Source of the DNA: Escherichia coli
GTDB lineage: Bacteria > Pseudomonadota > Gammaproteobacteria > Enterobacterales > Enterobacteriaceae
Length of the DNA: 64,000 bases
NCBI RefSeq assembly: GCF_013122565.1
Contig: NZ_CP053258.1
Strand: one strand, 5' to 3'
Below the pieces are notes generated by a model. It saw nothing but the letters and a program-made list of their open reading frames with translations, was not told the DNA's origin and did not search any database. The position numbers were made by a program, and so were the translations under genes. Within the stretch, counting starts at the first letter, position 1, and each line of letters starts with the position of its first letter. Below, piece by piece: positions 1,533 through 61,240 of this stretch.

Positions 1533-2672
1533 ATGAGCGCGGGAAGCCCAAAATTCACCGTTCGCCGCATTGCGGCATTGTCACTGGTTTCGCTATGGCT
1601 GGCAGGCTGTTCTGACACTTCAAATCCACCAGCACCGGTCAGCTCCGTTAATGGCAATGCGCCTGCAAATACCAATTCTGGTATGTTGATTACGCCGCCG
1701 CCGAAAATGGGGACGACGTCTACAGCGCAGCAACCGCAAATTCAGCCGGTGCAGCAGCCACAAATTCAGGCTACTCAACAACCGCAAATCCAGCCAGTGC
1801 AGCCAGTAGCTCAGCAGCCGGTACAGATGGAAAACGGACGCATCGTCTATAACCGTCAGTATGGGAACATTCCGAAAGGCAGTTATAGCGGCAGTACCTA
1901 TACCGTGAAAAAAGGCGACACGCTTTTCTATATCGCCTGGATAACTGGCAACGATTTCCGTGACCTTGCTCAGCGCAACAATATTCAGGCACCATACGCG
2001 CTGAACGTCGGTCAGACCTTACAGGTGGGTAATGCTTCCGGTACGCCAATCACTGGCGGAAATGCCATTACCCAGGCCGACGCAGCAGAGCAAGGAGTTG
2101 TGATCAAGCCTGCACAAAATTCCACCGTTGCTGTTGCGTCGCAACCGACAATTACGTATTCTGAGTCTTCGGGTGAACAGAGTGCTAACAAAATGTTGCC
2201 GAACAACAAGCCAACTGCGACCACGGTCACAGCGCCTGTAACGGTACCAACAGCAAGCACAACCGAGCCGACTGTCAGCAGTACATCAACCAGTACGCCT
2301 ATCTCCACCTGGCGCTGGCCGACTGAGGGCAAAGTGATCGAAACCTTTGGCGCTTCTGAGGGGGGCAACAAGGGGATTGATATCGCAGGCAGCAAAGGAC
2401 AGGCAATTATCGCGACCGCAGATGGCCGCGTTGTTTATGCCGGTAACGCGCTGCGCGGCTACGGTAATCTGATTATCATCAAACATAATGATGATTACCT
2501 GAGTGCCTACGCCCATAACGACACAATGCTGGTCCGGGAACAACAAGAAGTGAAGGCGGGGCAAAAAATAGCAACCATGGGTAGCACCGGAACCAGTTCA
2601 ACACGCTTGCATTTTGAAATTCGTTACAAGGGGAAATCCGTAAACCCGCTGCGTTATTTGCCGCAGCGATAA
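1533..2672 (+). CDS. nlpD: Murein hydrolase activator lipoprotein NlpD (lipobox, Q/P-rich repeat linker, LysM, M23 peptidase domain)
   Basis: 379-aa ORF; signal peptide with LAGCS lipobox; LysM-like and M23 segments; immediately upstream of rpoS. Confidence 0.93.
2134..2162 (+). promoter_or_regulatory. Candidate major rpoS promoter inside nlpD (-35 TTGCGT, 17-nt spacer, -10 TATTCT), giving a roughly 565-nt leader
   Basis: Hexamers read directly; predicted start about 566 nt upstream of the rpoS ATG, consistent with the long rpoS leader known to originate within nlpD. Confidence 0.55.
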
Positions 2673-2734
2673 ATCGGCGGAACCAGGCTTTTGCTTGAAT
2701 GTTCCGTCAAGGGATCACGGGTAGGAGCCACCTT

Positions 2735-3727
2735 ATGAGTCAGAATACGCTGAAAGTTCATGATTTAAATGAAGATGCGGAATTTGATGAGAACGGAGTT
2801 GAGGTTTTTGACGAAAAGGCCTTAGTAGAAGAGGAACCCAGTGATAACGATTTGGCCGAAGAGGAACTGTTATCGCAGGGAGCCACACAGCGTGTGTTGG
2901 ACGCGACTCAGCTTTACCTTGGTGAGATTGGTTATTCACCACTGTTAACGGCCGAAGAAGAAGTTTATTTTGCGCGTCGCGCACTGCGTGGAGATGTTGC
3001 CTCTCGCCGCCGGATGATCGAGAGTAACTTGCGTCTGGTGGTAAAAATTGCCCGCCGTTATGGCAATCGTGGTCTGGCGTTGCTGGACCTTATCGAAGAG
3101 GGCAACCTGGGGCTGATCCGCGCGGTAGAGAAGTTTGACCCGGAACGTGGTTTCCGCTTCTCAACATACGCAACCTGGTGGATTCGCCAGACGATCGAAC
3201 GGGCGATTATGAACCAAACCCGTACTATTCGTTTGCCGATTCACATCGTAAAGGAGCTGAACGTTTACCTGCGAACCGCACGCGAGTTGTCCCATAAACT
3301 GGACCACGAACCAAGTGCGGAAGAGATCGCAGAGCAACTGGATAAGCCAGTTGATGACGTCAGTCGTATGCTTCGTCTTAACGAGCGCATTACCTCGGTA
3401 GACACCCCGCTGGGTGGTGATTCCGAAAAAGCGTTGCTGGACATCCTGGCCGATGAAAAAGAGAACGGTCCGGAAGATACCACGCAAGATGACGATATGA
3501 AGCAGAGCATCGTCAAATGGCTGTTCGAGCTGAACGCCAAACAGCGTGAAGTACTGGCACGTCGATTCGGTTTGCTGGGGTACGAAGCGGCAACACTGGA
3601 AGATGTAGGTCGTGAAATTGGCCTCACCCGTGAACGTGTTCGCCAGATTCAGGTTGAAGGCCTGCGCCGTTTGCGCGAAATCCTGCAAACGCAGGGGCTG
3701 AATATCGAAGCGCTGTTCCGCGAATAA
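2735..3727 (+). CDS. rpoS: RNA polymerase sigma factor RpoS (sigma-S/sigma-38); 330 aa from the internal ATG (MSQNTLKV), codon 33 is GAG (Glu)
   Basis: ORF translation recognised as RpoS; ORF-track start at 2699 is an upstream in-frame ATG. Confidence 0.95.
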
Positions 3728-3847: not shown

Positions 3848-4255
3848 CTATGTGTTCATCATCTTGCGCACCAACTGCATAAACAGCTCCTGCTCTTCTG
3901 CACTCAAACGCCCCAAAAATTCCTCATCCACGCTGTCACCAATGGGGATCGCCGCAGCAAGTACCTTTTCTCCTTCGGCAGTCAGCCAGACAAAGCGTCG
4001 CCGCTTGTCAGCGGCGTCATGTTCACGTCTGACTAAGCCACGATTTTCCATTCTTGCCAACATTTCTGCCAGCGTTGCTTTGGTGCTGACTGCTGCTTCT
4101 ATCAGTGCCACCTGTTCGATACCAGGCTTATCAGCAATGGCGCGCATCACCGCGTACTGTGGTTTGGTCAGGTCAGGTAACTCGTGCTGCCAGCGAGCCG
4201 TGTGCTGCTGAAAAAGCTGTCGTAACTGATGGAACGCTTTATTTCGTAACGCCAT
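3848..4255 (-). CDS. MarR/SlyA-family transcriptional regulator, divergent from the decarboxylase operon
   Basis: 135-aa ORF with winged-helix MarR-like core; position matches the slyA-like gene of the non-K-12 mutS-rpoS region. Confidence 0.8.
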   Translation of the reverse strand: MALRNKAFHQLRQLFQQHTARWQHELPDLTKPQYAVMRAIADKPGIEQVALIEAAVSTKATLAEMLARMENRGLVRREHDAADKRRRFVWLTAEGEKVLAAAIPIGDSVDEEFLGRLSAEEQELFMQLVRKMMNT

Positions 4256-4370
4256 GTAAACTCCGGGCTAATTCTCTGCCGCTATCATAGCGGTTTTTCA
4301 GTGACGAAGAAGATGTTGTTACTTTTCAGCGCTTGCCGCGATGAAAACAGAGGCGTATTTTAATAATAAC

Positions 4371-4384
4371 GTTCGTATACGAAC
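4371..4384. promoter_or_regulatory. Perfect 14-bp palindrome GTTCGTATACGAAC in the divergent promoter region, 18 bp upstream of the UbiX-like start; candidate MarR-type operator
   Basis: Palindrome read directly from sequence; position between divergent regulator and operon. Confidence 0.45.
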
Positions 4385-4401
4385 AATTTAGAGAGTAAGC
4401 A

Positions 4402-4995
4402 ATGAAACTGATCGTCGGGATGACAGGGGCCACCGGAGCGCCTCTTGGTGTGGCATTACTGCAAGCACTGCGGGAGATGCCGAATGTCGAGACTCATCTG
4501 GTGATGTCGAAGTGGGCGAAAACCACCATTGAACTGGAAACGCCTTACAGCGCCCGCGATGTTGCTGCCCTCGCTGACTTCAGCCATAACCCGGCGGATC
4601 AGGCGGCGACCATCTCCTCAGGTTCCTTTCGTACCGACGGCATGATCGTTATTCCGTGCAGTATGAAAACGCTCGCAGGTATCCGTGCCGGTTACGCCGA
4701 TGGCCTGGTAGGGCGCGCGGCGGACGTCGTGCTCAAAGAAGGCCGCAAACTGGTGCTGGTGCCGCGTGAAATGCCGCTTAGCACCATCCATCTCGAAAAT
4801 ATGCTCGCACTTTCACGCATGGGCGTGGCGATGGTGCCGCCGATGCCTGCCTTTTATAACCATCCCGAAACGGTAGATGACATTGTCCACCATGTGGTAG
4901 CCCGCGTGTTGGATCAATTTGGCCTCGAACATCCCCACGCCAGGCGCTGGCAAGGATTGCCGCAGGCCCTGAATTTTTCTCAGGAGAATGAATAA
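4402..4995 (+). CDS. UbiX/Pad1-family flavin prenyltransferase paralog (B subunit of a phenolic-acid decarboxylase system)
   Basis: 197-aa ORF with UbiX-like flavoprotein N-terminus (MKLIVGMTGATGA); stop overlaps start of the UbiD-like gene. Confidence 0.85.
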   Translation: MKLIVGMTGATGAPLGVALLQALREMPNVETHLVMSKWAKTTIELETPYSARDVAALADFSHNPADQAATISSGSFRTDGMIVIPCSMKTLAGIRAGYADGLVGRAADVVLKEGRKLVLVPREMPLSTIHLENMLALSRMGVAMVPPMPAFYNHPETVDDIVHHVVARVLDQFGLEHPHARRWQGLPQALNFSQENE

Positions 4996-6422
4996 TGGCA
5001 TTTGATGATTTACGCAGCTTTTTACTGGCGCTTGATGACCACGGCCAGTTACTGAAAATCAGCGAAGAGGTGAACGCGGAACCGGATCTGGCAGCAGCAG
5101 CTAACGCCACCGGGCGTATCGGCGATGGCGCGCCCGCGCTGTGGTTTGATAATATTCGCGGTTTTACCGATGCGCGCGTGGCGATGAATACCATCGGTTC
5201 CTGGCAGAACCACGCGATTTCCCTCGGCCTGCCGCCAAACACGCCGGTCAAAAAGCAGATTGATGAGTTTATCCGCCGCTGGGATAACTTCCCGATCGCC
5301 CCGGAGCGCCGCGCCAATCCAGCCTGGGCGCAGAACACCGTCGATGGCGACGAGATTAACCTGTTCGATATTCTGCCGCTGTTTCGTTTAAACGACGGTG
5401 ATGGCGGTTTCTATCTCGATAAAGCGTGCGTGGTTTCCCGCGACCCGCTCGATCCGGATAACTTCGGCAAGCAGAACGTCGGTATCTACCGCATGGAAGT
5501 GAAGGGCAAACGTAAGCTCGGCCTGCAACCGGTGCCGATGCACGATATCGCCCTGCATCTGCATAAAGCGGAAGAGCGCGGTGAAGATCTGCCGATTGCG
5601 ATCACCCTCGGTAACGATCCGATCATCACCCTGATGGGCGCCACCCCGCTGAAATACGATCAGTCTGAGTACGAAATGGCGGGCGCACTGCGCGAAAGCC
5701 CGTACCCGATCGCTACCGCGCCATTGACCGGTTTTGACGTGCCGTGGGGTTCTGAAGTGATCCTCGAAGGCGTTATCGAAAGCCGCAAACGTGAAATCGA
5801 AGGGCCATTCGGTGAGTTTACCGGCCACTACTCCGGCGGGCGTAACATGACCGTGGTGCGCATCGATAAAGTCTCTTACCGCACCAGGCCGATTTTCGAA
5901 TCGCTGTACCTCGGCATGCCGTGGACCGAAATCGACTACCTGATGGGGCCTGCCACCTGCGTGCCGCTTTACCAGCAACTGAAAGCCGAGTTCCCGGAAG
6001 TGCAGGCGGTAAACGCCATGTACACCCACGGCCTGCTGGCGATTATCTCCACCAAAAAACGCTACGGCGGCTTTGCCCGCGCGGTGGGGCTGCGAGCAAT
6101 GACAACGCCGCATGGTTTGGGCTACGTGAAGATGGTGATTATGGTCGATGAAGACGTTGATCCGTTCAACCTGCCACAGGTGATGTGGGCGCTCTCCTCG
6201 AAAGTGAACCCGGCGGGCGACCTGGTGCAGTTGCCGAATATGTCCGTGCTGGAACTCGACCCAGGTTCAAGCCCGGCGGGGATCACCGACAAGCTGATTA
6301 TCGACGCCACCACGCCTGTTGCCCCGGACAACCGTGGTCACTACAGCCAGCCGGTGGTGGATTTACCGGAAACCAAAGCCTGGGCTGAAAAACTGACCGC
6401 TATGCTGGCCGCACGTAAATAA
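4995..6422 (+). CDS. UbiD-family prFMN-dependent decarboxylase (C subunit)
   Basis: 475-aa ORF with UbiD-family similarity; translationally coupled to the upstream UbiX-like gene. Confidence 0.85.
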   Translation: MAFDDLRSFLLALDDHGQLLKISEEVNAEPDLAAAANATGRIGDGAPALWFDNIRGFTDARVAMNTIGSWQNHAISLGLPPNTPVKKQIDEFIRRWDNFPIAPERRANPAWAQNTVDGDEINLFDILPLFRLNDGDGGFYLDKACVVSRDPLDPDNFGKQNVGIYRMEVKGKRKLGLQPVPMHDIALHLHKAEERGEDLPIAITLGNDPIITLMGATPLKYDQSEYEMAGALRESPYPIATAPLTGFDVPWGSEVILEGVIESRKREIEGPFGEFTGHYSGGRNMTVVRIDKVSYRTRPIFESLYLGMPWTEIDYLMGPATCVPLYQQLKAEFPEVQAVNAMYTHGLLAIISTKKRYGGFARAVGLRAMTTPHGLGYVKMVIMVDEDVDPFNLPQVMWALSSKVNPAGDLVQLPNMSVLELDPGSSPAGITDKLIIDATTPVAPDNRGHYSQPVVDLPETKAWAEKLTAMLAARK

Positions 6423-6432
6423 GGAGAACAAG

Positions 6433-6669
6433 ATGATTTGTCCACGTTGTGCCGATGAACAGATTGAAGTGATGGCGAAATCGCCGGTGAAAGATGTCTG
6501 GACGGTCTACCAGTGCCAGCATTGCCTTTATACCTGGCGCGATACCGAACCGCTACGCCGCACCAGTCGCGAACATTACCCGGAAGCGTTTCGCATGACG
6601 CAGAAAGATATTGATGATGCGCCAATGGTGCCGAGCATCCCGCCGCTGCTGGCGGCAGATAAGCGTTAA
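6433..6669 (+). CDS. Small zinc-ribbon protein, D subunit of the decarboxylase cluster (CPRC...CQHC)
   Basis: 78-aa ORF, four Cys in two CxxC pairs, 10 nt downstream of the UbiD-like gene. Confidence 0.7.
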   Translation: MICPRCADEQIEVMAKSPVKDVWTVYQCQHCLYTWRDTEPLRRTSREHYPEAFRMTQKDIDDAPMVPSIPPLLAADKR

Positions 6670-6710
6670 TAAAAAAGTGCTGGGTAGAGGCTTTGCTTTA
6701 CCCGGCCACG

Positions 6711-7367
6711 TTATTTAATTTTATAAAACGATAACCGTCCACTCTCCGGCGAGCCGGTATCAATATAAACTTGATTGGCAAATGTCTGGATATTGGTAAA
6801 CATCATATGCCCGAAGATAAAACAGTCTGCACCGTTTATTTCTTTTAACTCTCCCTTGAATGATTTCTGCACGCGATCAACAGGCCAGAGTAATTCTCTT
6901 TCTGCTATTTCTTTACCAAACTGATATTCATCACCCGGATAATCCGCATGTGCGATGACATATTTTATTCTGTCGTTAGTGATTTCAATAATATGTGGAA
7001 GGTGATGAAATTTCAGCAACAGATCTATTGCCTCTTGTTGCTCTGAATCATTTAAATCGAAAAACCAGTCACCACCGCTGGCAAGCCACATGTTGCCATC
7101 GCCGGTCGCGAACGCATCCAGCGCCATTGCTTCGTGGTTGCCTTTAACGGAGATAAACCAGGGCTGGTTTAGCAGGCGCAGGACGCTAAGACTCTCCGGC
7201 CCACGATCAATATTATCGCCGACAGAAATAAGTAAGTCGGTTTCGGGGAAAAAAGAGAGTTGATGTAAACGGGATTGTAATAACTGATATTCACCATGAA
7301 TATCACCAACGACCCATATATGGCGATAGTGACGGGCATTGATTTTTTGATAGCGTGTAGATGGCAT
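6711..7367 (-). CDS. pphB: Serine/threonine protein phosphatase 2 (calcineurin-like metallophosphatase)
   Basis: 218-aa ORF with GDIHG and GNHE metallophosphatase motifs; adjacent to mutS. Confidence 0.9.
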   Translation of the reverse strand: MPSTRYQKINARHYRHIWVVGDIHGEYQLLQSRLHQLSFFPETDLLISVGDNIDRGPESLSVLRLLNQPWFISVKGNHEAMALDAFATGDGNMWLASGGDWFFDLNDSEQQEAIDLLLKFHHLPHIIEITNDRIKYVIAHADYPGDEYQFGKEIAERELLWPVDRVQKSFKGELKEINGADCFIFGHMMFTNIQTFANQVYIDTGSPESGRLSFYKIK

Positions 7368-7472
7368 GGTTTTACCCTGTAAAATAAGCTTTCCTATTAT
7401 ACAGGGTATTTTTATTTGATTCGTCAGTTGTCGTTAATATTCCCGATAGCAAAAGACTATCGGGAATTGTTA

Positions 7473-10034
7473 TTACACCAGACTCTTCAAGTGATAAATC
7501 CACTCCAGCGCCTGACGCGGGGTCAGTGAATCCGGGTCGAGATTTTCCAGCGCTTCCACCGCGGGCGAGGTTTCTTCCGGCACTGAAAGCAGCGACATCT
7601 GCGTACCATCAACCTGCGTAGCGGCGGCATTCGGCGAAATGCTCTCCAGCTCGCGCAGTTTCTGCCGCGCACGCTTGATCACCTCTTTCGGCACACCCGC
7701 CAGCGCAGCAACCGCCAGGCCGTAGCTTTTGCTCGCCGCGCCGTCCTGCACGCTGTGCATAAAGGCAATGGTATCGCCGTGCTCCAGTGCATCGAGATGC
7801 ACGTTGGCGACGCCTTCCATTTTCTCCGGTAACTGGGTCAGCTCGAAATAGTGGGTAGCAAACAACGTCAACGCTTTAATCTTATTCGCCAGATTTTCCG
7901 CGCACGCCCACGCCAGCGACAGACCATCGTAAGTGGACGTTCCACGCCCAATCTCATCCATCAGCACCAGACTGTACTCGGTGGCGTTATGTAAAATATT
8001 GGCGGTTTCGGTCATTTCCACCATAAAGGTTGAACGGCCGGAAGCCAGATCGTCCGCTGCCCCTACGCGGGTAAAGATGCGATCGATAGGTCCAATCTCG
8101 ACTTTTTGTGCCGGTACATAGCTGCCGATGTAGGCCATCAACGCAATCAGTGCGGTCTGGCGCATATAGGTACTTTTACCGCCCATATTCGGACCGGTAA
8201 TGATCAACATGCGACGCTGCGGCGACAGGTTCAGCGGGTTGGCGATAAACGGCTCATTCAGCACCTGTTCAACCACCGGATGGCGGCCTTCGGTGATGCG
8301 AATACCCGGTTTATCAATAAAGGTCGGGCAGGTGTAGTTCAGGGTATAGGCCCGCTCTGCCAGGTTAACCAGCACATCAAGTTCTGCCAGCGCGCTTGCG
8401 CTCTGTTGCAACGCTTCCAGATGCGGCAACAGCAGGTCGAACAGCTCTTCATAAAGCTGTTTTTCCAGTGCCAGTGCTTTGCCTTTTGAGGTGAGAACTT
8501 TATCTTCGTACTCTTTTAGCTCTGGAATAATGTAGCGTTCGGCGTTTTTCAGCGTCTGGCGGCGCATGTAGTTAATCGGAGCCAGGTGGCTTTGCCCACG
8601 GCTGATCTGAATGTAATAGCCATGCACCGCGTTAAAGCCAACTTTCAGCGTGTCCAGGCCGGTACGTTCACGCTCGCGGATTTCCAGACGCTCCAGATAA
8701 TCGGTCGCGCCGTCAGCCAGCGCGCGCCACTCATCCAGCTCTTCGTTATAGCCCGATGCGATAACACCACCGTCGCGTACCAGCACTGGCGGTGTGTCGA
8801 TGATTGCTCGCTCCAGCAGATCGCGCAGCTCGGCAAACTCGCCCATCTTCTCACGCAGCGCCTGTACCGGTGCACTATCGACGCCTTCCAGTTGCGCACG
8901 AAGTTCCGGCAGTTGCTGGAAAGCGTGACGCATACGGGCCAGATCGCGTGGGCGAGCGGTACGCAACGCCAGACGCGCCAGAATACGTTCCAGGTCGCCG
9001 ACCTGACGCAGTACCGGCTGCAGCTCGGCGGTGAAATCCTGCAATGCGCCAATAGTTTGCTGGCGCTCAAGCAACACGCGGGTATCGCGCACTGGCATAT
9101 GCAGCCAGCGCTTCAGCATACGGCTACCCATCGGCGTTACAGTGCAGTCGAGTACGGAAGCCAGCGTGTTTTCCGCACCACCCGCCAGATTCTGGGTGAT
9201 TTCCAGATTTCGACGCGTCGCGGCATCCATAATGATGCTGTCCTGCTCACGTTCCATGGTGATAGAACGAATATGCGGCAGGGTTGTGCGTTGGGTATCT
9301 TTCGCATACTGCAACAGACAACCGGCAGCACAAAGTCCGCGCGGCGCGTTCTCGACGCCGAAACCAATCAGATCACGAGTACCAAATTGCAGGTTCAACT
9401 GCTGGCGCGCGGTGTCGATTTCAAACTCCCACAGCGGGCGACGGCGCAGACCGCGACGACCTTCAATTAACGACATTTCAGCAAAATCTTCTGCATACAG
9501 CAGTTCCGCCGGATTAGTGCGTTGCAGTTCTGCCGCCATCGTTTCCCGGTCAGCCGGTTCGCTAAGGCGAAAACGACCGGAGCTGATATCCAGCGTCGCG
9601 TAGCCGAAACCTTTACTGTCCTGCCAGATAGCCGCCAACAGGTTGTCCTGACGCTCCTGCAACAGCGCTTCATCACTGATGGTGCCTGGCGTAACGATAC
9701 GCACAACTTTGCGCTCAACCGGACCTTTGCTGGTCGCCGGATCGCCAATTTGTTCGCAGATGGCAACGGACTCGCCCTGATTCACCAGTTTGGCGAGGTA
9801 GTTTTCCACCGCATGGTAGGGGATCCCCGCCATCGGGATCGGCTCGCCCGCTGAAGCGCCGCGTTTGGTCAGTGAAATATCCAGCAGTTGCGACGCGCGT
9901 TTTGCGTCGTCATAAAACAGTTCATAAAAATCACCCATCCGGTAAAACAGCAGGATCTCGGGATGCTGGGCTTTCAGCTTGAGATACTGCTGCATCATGG
10001 GCGTATGGGCGTCGAAATTTTCTATTGCACTCAT
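7473..10034 (-). CDS. mutS: DNA mismatch repair protein MutS
   Basis: 853-aa ORF with Walker [10 protein letters not shown] and MutS signature; recognised sequence. Confidence 0.97.
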
Positions 10035-48798: not shown

Positions 48799-48891
48799 GG
48801 TGAGGTGGCCGAGAGGCTGAAGGCGCTCCCCTGCTAAGGGAGTATGCGGTTAAAAGCTGCATCCGGGGTTCGAATCCCCGCCTCACCGCCA
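48799..48891 (+). tRNA. serV: tRNA-Ser (anticodon GCU), long variable arm, encoded CCA
   Basis: GGTGAGGTGGCCGAGAGG...CTGCTAA anticodon loop...GGTTCGAATCC T-arm...CACCGCCA. Confidence 0.95.
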
Positions 48892-48894
48892 TTT

Positions 48895-48971
48895 GCATCC
48901 GTAGCTCAGCTGGATAGAGTACTCGGCTACGAACCGAGCGGTCGGAGGTTCGAATCCTCCCGGATGCACCA
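48895..48971 (+). tRNA. argV: tRNA-Arg (anticodon ACG), copy 1
   Basis: GCATCCGTAGCTCAGCTGGATAGAGTACTCGGCTACGAACCGAGCGGTCGGAGGTTCGAATCCTCCCGGATGCACCA. Confidence 0.95.
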
Positions 48972-49105
48972 TATTCTACGTACTTTCAGCGATGAAGGTA
49001 TGGAAGAGGTGGCGGTAATAACCGCAGGCACCAGGGAGGATAACGTTGCTTTAGCAACGGCCCGAAGGGCGAGCCGCAAGGCGAGTAATCCTCCCGGATG
49101 CACCA
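48972..49105 (+). repeat. Spacer unit A (about 134 nt) ending in a pseudo-copy of the tRNA-Arg 3' end (AATCCTCCCGGATGCACCA); second copy at 49525-49657
   Basis: Two copies of roughly 85% identity by eye, both ending in the last 18-19 nt of tRNA-Arg; internal hairpins retained in both. Confidence 0.8.
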
Positions 49106-49169
49106 TCTCTTACTTGATACGGCTTTAGTAGCGGTATCAAAAAATCTGCAGTAAAGTAAGTTTCCCGAT

Positions 49170-49246
49170 GCATCCGTAGCTCAGCTGGATAGAGTACTCG
49201 GCTACGAACCGAGCGGTCGGAGGTTCGAATCCTCCCGGATGCACCA
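49170..49246 (+). tRNA. argY: tRNA-Arg (ACG), copy 2
   Basis: Identical 77-nt tRNA-Arg sequence. Confidence 0.95.
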
Positions 49247-49308
49247 TCTCTTACTTGATATGGCTTTAGTAGCGGTATCAATATCAGCAGTAAAATAAAT
49301 TTTCCGAT

Positions 49309-49385
49309 GCATCCGTAGCTCAGCTGGATAGAGTACTCGGCTACGAACCGAGCGGTCGGAGGTTCGAATCCTCCCGGATGCACCA
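49309..49385 (+). tRNA. argZ: tRNA-Arg (ACG), copy 3
   Basis: Identical 77-nt tRNA-Arg sequence. Confidence 0.95.
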
Positions 49386-49447
49386 TCTCTTAATTGATAT
49401 GGCTTTAGTAGCGGTATCAATATCAGCAGTAAAATAAATTTCCCGAT

Positions 49448-49524
49448 GCATCCGTAGCTCAGCTGGATAGAGTACTCGGCTACGAACCGAGCGGTCGGAG
49501 GTTCGAATCCTCCCGGATGCACCA
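49448..49524 (+). tRNA. argQ: tRNA-Arg (ACG), copy 4
   Basis: Identical 77-nt tRNA-Arg sequence. Confidence 0.95.
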
Positions 49525-52433: not shown

Positions 52434-52506
52434 AAAAAGGCCACTCGTGAGTGGCCAAAATTTCATCTCTGAATTCAGGGATGATGATAACAAATGCGCG
52501 TCTTTC
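52434..52506 (-). ncRNA. micA: MicA (SraD) Hfq-dependent sRNA, antisense in the gshA-luxS gap
   Basis: Minus-strand sequence GAAAGACGCGCATTTGTTATCATCATCCCTGAATTCAGAGATGAAATTTTGGCCACTCACGAGTGGCCTTTTT matches MicA as I recall it, including the terminator hairpin and U-tail. Confidence 0.9.
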
Positions 52507-61159: not shown

Positions 61160-61240
61160 GTAGGCATGATAAGACGCGCCAGCGTCGCATCAGGCATTGT
61201 GTACAGAGCGGCGGATGCGGCGAAAACGCCTTATCCGCCC
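61160..61240. repeat. REP/BIME elements between ygaY and proX
   Basis: GTAGGCATGATAAGACGCGCCAGCGTCGCATCAGGCA and GGCGGATGCGGCGAAAACGCCTTATCCGCCC palindromes. Confidence 0.75.

Follow-up and report, generated by a model that had tools for sequence, protein, structure and literature searches.

The tandem repeat within nlpD of the Escherichia coli genome studied here (a single window of 64,000 nucleotides, to which all positions refer) is best understood as an old, imperfect in-frame duplication that encodes residues 65-98, the second and uncharged half of the flexible tether between Cys26 and the LysM domain of NlpD, a reading to which we would give a probability of about 0.85. The repeat most likely acts as part of an extended spacer, and not as a switch. 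It occupies 1725-1829, between the lipobox Cys26 and LysM, and is built of three imperfect 24-nt units (xQQPQIQx), a pair of 9-nt units (QPV) and a degenerate tail, all in frame. Residues 65-98 would thus lengthen the same flexible spacer as residues 27-64. Its origin, and its occasional changes to this day, would lie in slippage during replication or in recombination, in either case between short direct repeats. Its near-fixation would be due to purifying selection, acting on the peptide as well as on segment length, and to the loss of DNA identity at silent sites.

The gene that carries the repeat encodes NlpD, an outer-membrane lipoprotein and activator of the murein hydrolase AmiC. Its coding sequence lies at 1533-2672 on the plus strand (379 amino acids plus stop), as given by the open reading frame, NCBIfam and Pfam. 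The NCBIfam equivalog NF008123 scores 679 bits against this frame, for a cut-off of 311, and aligns over its full length (residues 4-379 to profile positions 1-365). A signal peptide with the lipobox LAGC can be read from the translation at 1533-1610 (+) and ends in Cys26 (1608-1610), the residue expected to be lipidated, which is invariant in an alignment of 38 orthologues. It is followed by the first part of the linker, from S27 to T64 (1611-1724, +), which was delimited by alignment and composition, includes a conserved block and matches the segment removed in the published variant NlpD delta29-64. Beyond the repeat lie a LysM domain at residues 123-165 (1899-2027, +; Pfam PF01476, E = 2.7e-12) and an M23 domain at residues 279-372 (2367-2648, +; Pfam PF01551 Peptidase_M23, E = 4.6e-33). 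A motif check identifies the latter as a degenerate LytM domain, with HxxxD absent and HFE at 360-362 in place of HxH. The genomic setting is likewise that of nlpD: the gene order at the start of the window is surE-pcm-nlpD-rpoS, the RpoS equivalog is found at 2735-3724, and both genes, pcm and nlpD, occupy the corresponding places in the annotation of the E. coli records inspected.

Some observations on reading frames at this locus stand apart from the repeat. RefSeq/PGAP begins nlpD at a TTG (1578) and not at the ATG at 1533, which precedes it by 45 nt, and in all E. coli records inspected this start gives a protein of 364 amino acids (1,095 nt) instead of 379. The PGAP start does away with K7, R11 and R12, and with them the positive charge that the n-region of a lipoprotein signal peptide should have, and the longer N-terminus (MSAGS...) is kept in 38 of 38 aligned orthologues. 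For rpoS, the mechanical open reading frame runs from an ATG at 2699 (342 amino acids, 2699-3727), and the equivalog aligns end to end with the 330-residue product that starts at the ATG at 2735. An open reading frame on the minus strand (1771-2049) was also considered and taken as mechanical; third-position variation tracks the plus-strand frame.

Tandem Repeats Finder places the array at 1726-1795, with a period of 24, 2.9 copies, 71% matches and a score of 70. Read in frame on the plus strand, unit 1 (GCGCAGCAACCGCAAATTCAGCCG, AQQPQIQP, residues 65-72) spans 1725-1748, unit 2 (GTGCAGCAGCCACAAATTCAGGCT, VQQPQIQA, residues 73-80) spans 1749-1772 and is identical to unit 1 at 19/24 positions, and unit 3 (ACTCAACAACCGCAAATCCAGCCA, TQQPQIQP, residues 81-88) spans 1773-1796, with identities of 19/24 to unit 1 and 15/24 to unit 2; pairwise identity among the units is therefore 63-79%. 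The in-frame remainder comprises 11 residues (89-99; 1797-1829, +). A nested 9-nt repeat, CAGCCAGTG CAGCCAGTA, encodes QPV QPV at residues 87-92 (1791-1808, +), contains an exact 8-nt repeat at lag 9, and is where the -9 and +9 alleles described below differ from the common length. The degenerate tail, which reads AQQPVQM in frame (residues 93-99; 1809-1829, +), holds CAGCCGGTACAG (1815-1826, +), the distal direct repeat of a -72 deletion. The sequences ACGACGTCTACA and ATGGAAAACGG flank the repeat segment on either side, and the C-terminal bound of the variable segment is a block, residues 100-118 (1830-1886, +), that is nearly invariant in the alignment of 38 orthologues.

That the copies stand head to tail beyond chance is borne out by the score, by the singularity of the array in the window and by shuffling: an identity of 34/48 at lag 24 is reached only from starts 1722-1725 and nowhere else in the 64 kb, and when the codons of the region were shuffled with its biased composition kept, 35 of 5,000 shuffles matched or exceeded the observed periodicity. 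The longest exact repeat of the region measures 11 nt, at lag 48, and the longest exact match at lag 24 is 9 nt. An earlier note, written from the letters of the window, had described an in-frame repeat that encodes a Q/P-rich linker in NlpD between the lipoprotein signal and LysM, and this description stands. The profile match and the in-frame reading of the units confirm the gene and the frame, the positions of Cys26 and LysM confirm the placement, and residues 65-98 consist of 47% Q and 21% P, with proline every 3-8 residues and no charged or aromatic residue. Its coordinates, 1726-1830, were off by no more than one base, and the motif it quoted, CAGCAACCGCAAATTCAGCC, occurs exactly at 1728-1747.

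Such a composition favours disorder in residues 65-98, and the two linkers of NlpD have been predicted to be disordered by DISOPRED (Tsang et al., 2017; PMC5533458). An AlphaFold2 model made with 38 orthologues as input (mean pLDDT 37, pTM 0.22) was poor even in LysM and LytM, and it is uninformative on disorder because it is poor throughout, folded domains included. Searches of PDB sequences returned solved relatives for the LytM domain only and none over the linker. The position is that of the N-terminal linker of an outer-membrane lipoprotein, as residues 27-99 span the distance from Cys26 to the conserved block and LysM. With the disordered N-terminal linkers of RcsF, Pal and NlpD (bioRxiv 10.1101/2021.01.05.425367; PMC5533458) the repeat shares a place that directly follows the lipobox and the sorting residues, as well as a low-complexity, proline-rich make-up. 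NlpD is itself among the tested examples. El Rayes et al. (bioRxiv 10.1101/2021.01.05.425367) showed with NlpD delta29-64, about 60% of which stays in the inner membrane, that this part of the linker is needed for efficient Lol-dependent sorting to the outer membrane; nor does the variant relieve chaining in an envC nlpD mutant. However, the tested deletion ends one residue short of the repeat and leaves residues 65-98 in place, and we found in the literature no published experiment specific to these residues. Low-complexity periplasmic spacers are known from TonB, with its Pro-rich (Glu-Pro/Lys-Pro) region, and from FtsN, with its Gln-rich linker. Like them, the repeat is an extended P- or Q-rich segment, of the kind by which envelope proteins reach part of the way across the periplasm from their anchor. 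The compositions differ, the TonB spacer being charged and the NlpD repeat uncharged, and the proteins are unrelated, so that no homology is implied.

How far the repeat varies within the species was examined in 5,426 complete E. coli genomes, of which 5,420 matched a 351-nt query, always in nlpD. Real and synthetic alleles were used as queries, so that the carriers of each allele would rank first. One common length is found in more than 99.5% of the 5,420 genomes, and the 169-nt repeat region of the window is 100% identical to that of K-12, BL21-derived and O157:H7 genomes. Length variants, all of them in frame, were found in at least 15 of the 5,420 genomes (0.28%), a lower bound to which some 10 further records, with identities of 90-95% to the reference-length query, may add. 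The 169-nt reference-length query covered at least 80% of its length in 5,416 of 5,419 records, 21 of which fell below 95% identity, and it limits deletions and small indels to about 25 at most; larger insertions, which may align as two full-coverage pieces, were checked by direct allele queries. Some 61 genomes to which the indel queries aligned only in part were considered as a hidden class of alleles and rejected, since they align in full to the reference-length query and are therefore normal-length SNP variants. For six of the 5,426 genomes the query from nlpD positions 1600-1950 had no match; they may have lost the nlpD-rpoS region or diverged strongly.

The most frequent variant is a -9 allele with one QPV, present with identical sequence in seven genomes, whose sources are cattle and, in one case, human stool; the seven carriers probably form one lineage. 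A +9 allele with three QPV occurs in four genomes on two codon backgrounds, GTA-type and GTG-type, and must therefore have arisen in at least two independent events. Five units are found in one genome (+48; PapRG-04-4), and a single unit in the two pig isolates PEC145 and PEC411 (-48) and in Z142-6 (-72); the singleton alleles +48 and -72 could be assembly errors. In all five variant alleles whose annotation was inspected, nlpD is annotated as intact. Changes by a single unit (+24 or -24) were not found among the 5,420 genomes with synthetic 4-unit and 2-unit queries, which no genome matched better than did the gap-aligned reference allele; the 2-unit query incidentally retrieved the +48 and -9 alleles.

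The comparison of repeat numbers across strains that the earlier note had proposed thus gave differing numbers, among them alleles with one and with five units, with one or with three QPV, and the four units of E. albertii. Length variation exists, and an identical repeat number in all strains, the outcome that the note had named as making slippage irrelevant, is thereby refuted. Its view that the repeat can change in length is upheld, but "prone to" slippage is too strong for 15 genomes in 5,420 and no change by a single unit. Since copy number differs between strains, the repeat is a VNTR in the broad sense; it would be of little use as a typing marker because length variation is rare. We found no literature on strain-level length variation of the nlpD repeat.

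All length variants have their junctions within direct repeats of 7-12 nt. The +48 allele has a hybrid third unit with the crossover inside CAACCGCAAAT, the 11-nt longest exact repeat of the region, at lag 48; the -48 junction lies in GTGCAGC, the -72 junction in CAGCCGGT(A)CAG, and those of the +9 and -9 alleles in CAGCCAGT. The maximum match of 9 nt at lag 24 fits the lack of single-unit changes, and slippage is rare because decay at silent sites shortens the exact repeats.

With its tandem copies, its place in a cell-envelope gene that immediately precedes rpoS, some length alleles and a +9 change that arose at least twice, the repeat may bring to mind a hypervariable contingency locus, at which frequent slippage produces diversity of adaptive value or turns NlpD, or rpoS downstream of it, on and off by phase variation. 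With the in-frame VNTRs and phase-variable loci of surface proteins the array indeed shares its head-to-tail copies, its place in a cell-envelope gene and its short-direct-repeat junctions. However, units of 24 and 9 nt exclude switching by frameshift, the variation is very rare where such loci vary at high frequency, the exact repeats do not exceed 11 nt, and the number of units is equal in four three-unit Escherichia genomes from separate species-level lineages. As the units are multiples of three and imperfect, and 99.7% of the 5,420 genomes are uniform in length, this explanation is so improbable that we consider it excluded.

Across five Escherichia genomes, 16 QQPQIQ cores are encoded by 10 DNA versions and yield one peptide. 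All six third codon positions vary among these cores, and none of the 12 first and second positions does. The constraint must therefore act on the peptide and neither on DNA nor on RNA, because the silent sites all vary and the amino acids are fixed. Comparison of the coding sequences thus gives a clear indication of purifying selection on the QQPQIQ peptide, and the likeness among the units is not maintained by gene conversion.

The same pattern bears on the idea that the repeat acts in the nucleic acid and not in the protein, for instance as a promoter, as a structured RNA or as an array of binding sites for proteins, in the expression of nlpD or rpoS. Transcription of rpoS begins in part within nlpD, which gives this idea some appeal. 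However, the major rpoS promoter, which we take to lie some 570 nt ahead of the start of rpoS, would fall near window position 2170, some 350 nt downstream of the repeat. Moreover, a promoter and terminator scan of 1380-2760 returned nothing in or near the repeat and no promoter-like site, and an Rfam search of the window gave no match in nlpD. Given that silent sites vary and that neither a promoter-like site nor an Rfam match was found in nlpD, we judge a role of the repeat at the level of nucleic acid to be very unlikely.

Beyond E. coli, a scan of species representatives returned 80 Enterobacteriaceae loci, or 81 sequences with the window. Three units are found in three Escherichia genomes besides the window and four in E. 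albertii (386 amino acids). In Citrobacter, Salmonella, Enterobacter and others a degenerate periodic segment rich in Q, P and V occupies the same site. Tandem Repeats Finder detects arrays at the site in 26 of the 81 sequences, with periods of 9, 12, 15, 18, 24 or 30, all multiples of 3. The segment from MLIT to NGRIVYNR measures 30-54 residues (median 40; 46 in E. coli), and in the 38-orthologue alignment the repeat segment is the most gap-rich stretch of NlpD, set between two nearly invariant blocks. These differences among species therefore point to repeated expansion and contraction over evolutionary time within a limited range of lengths.

Other arrays at the site, and the segments around it, were noted in passing. 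In Enterobacter pulveris DSM 19144, nucleotides 248-286 of nlpD form a perfect 15-nt repeat in 2.6 copies (PVSQP), and in Kosakonia cowanii nucleotides 205-246 encode four QPV. These arrays appear younger and particular to their genera, and the repeat site of nlpD would be a recurrent hotspot for in-frame expansion. The nearly invariant blocks across the 38 Enterobacteriaceae are residues 49-60 (1677-1712) and the block at 100-118; their conservation suggests that a linker supposed to be unstructured has functional or structured elements on both sides of the variable repeat. A second linker, T/S/A/P-rich, extends from LysM to the degenerate LytM domain (residues 166-278; 2028-2366) and shows lineage-specific indels across genera (alignment columns 211-285).

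The strict conservation of QQPQIQ exceeds the need of a pure spacer and counts against reading the segment as spacer only. It could be proposed instead that the units form a sequence-specific, multivalent docking motif for a septal, outer-membrane or Lol-pathway partner, with a copy number that regulates NlpD beyond its effect on length. In line with such a proposal, all 16 cores keep QQPQIQ exactly despite variation at every synonymous site, PQIQ is present in 64 of the 81 Enterobacteriaceae orthologues, and a fusion with the N-terminal linker alone is weakly enriched at midcell (PMC5533458). On the contrary, outside Escherichia there is usually one copy of PQIQPVQ and the rest of the segment changes freely in sequence and period, E. 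coli genomes with a single unit have an apparently intact nlpD, the NlpD of Yersinia reportedly is without the region (PMC2736372), and such a motif has no known partner. We therefore regard docking as unlikely, albeit more probable than either alternative above. The more specific proposal that QQPQIQ is a selected multivalent binding motif, whose copy number (1 to 5 in nature) tunes when NlpD activates AmiC, is a little more doubtful still.

Elsewhere in the window, the interval between rpoS and mutS (3848-10034) carries a gene for a MarR-family regulator at 3848-4255 (-), genes for the hydroxyarylic acid decarboxylase subunits VdcB (4402-4995) and VdcC (4995-6422), and a phosphatase gene at 6711-7367. 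K-12 has the ygbI-ygbN block at this interval instead, and we take the form in the window to be that of O157:H7-like strains in a known polymorphic region. Rfam further identifies a cluster of five tRNAs at 48799-49521, four of them with identical scores and regular spacing, and the MicA sRNA and naRNA4 at 52435-52506 (-) and 61163-61240 (-), respectively.

Overall, the significance of the repeat is small. It is already known, and it is ordinary and near-fixed in length. Going by a title in the reference list of Tidhar et al. (2009; PMC2736372), a repeat in nlpD was reported in 1994 by Ichikawa; from that title and the later description, gene and repeat are the same, with no difference in kind. 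The locus is among the best studied in E. coli, and the general role of linkers of this kind has been published. To the repeat of 1994 the present analysis adds how often length alleles occur among 5,420 genomes and where their junctions lie, together with the allele of four units in E. albertii and the synonymous-only divergence of the cores. The natural alleles with 1, 3, 4 and 5 units provide ready-made material on linker length in NlpD, and the purifying selection on the core raises the modest question of whether the segment serves as a spacer only.
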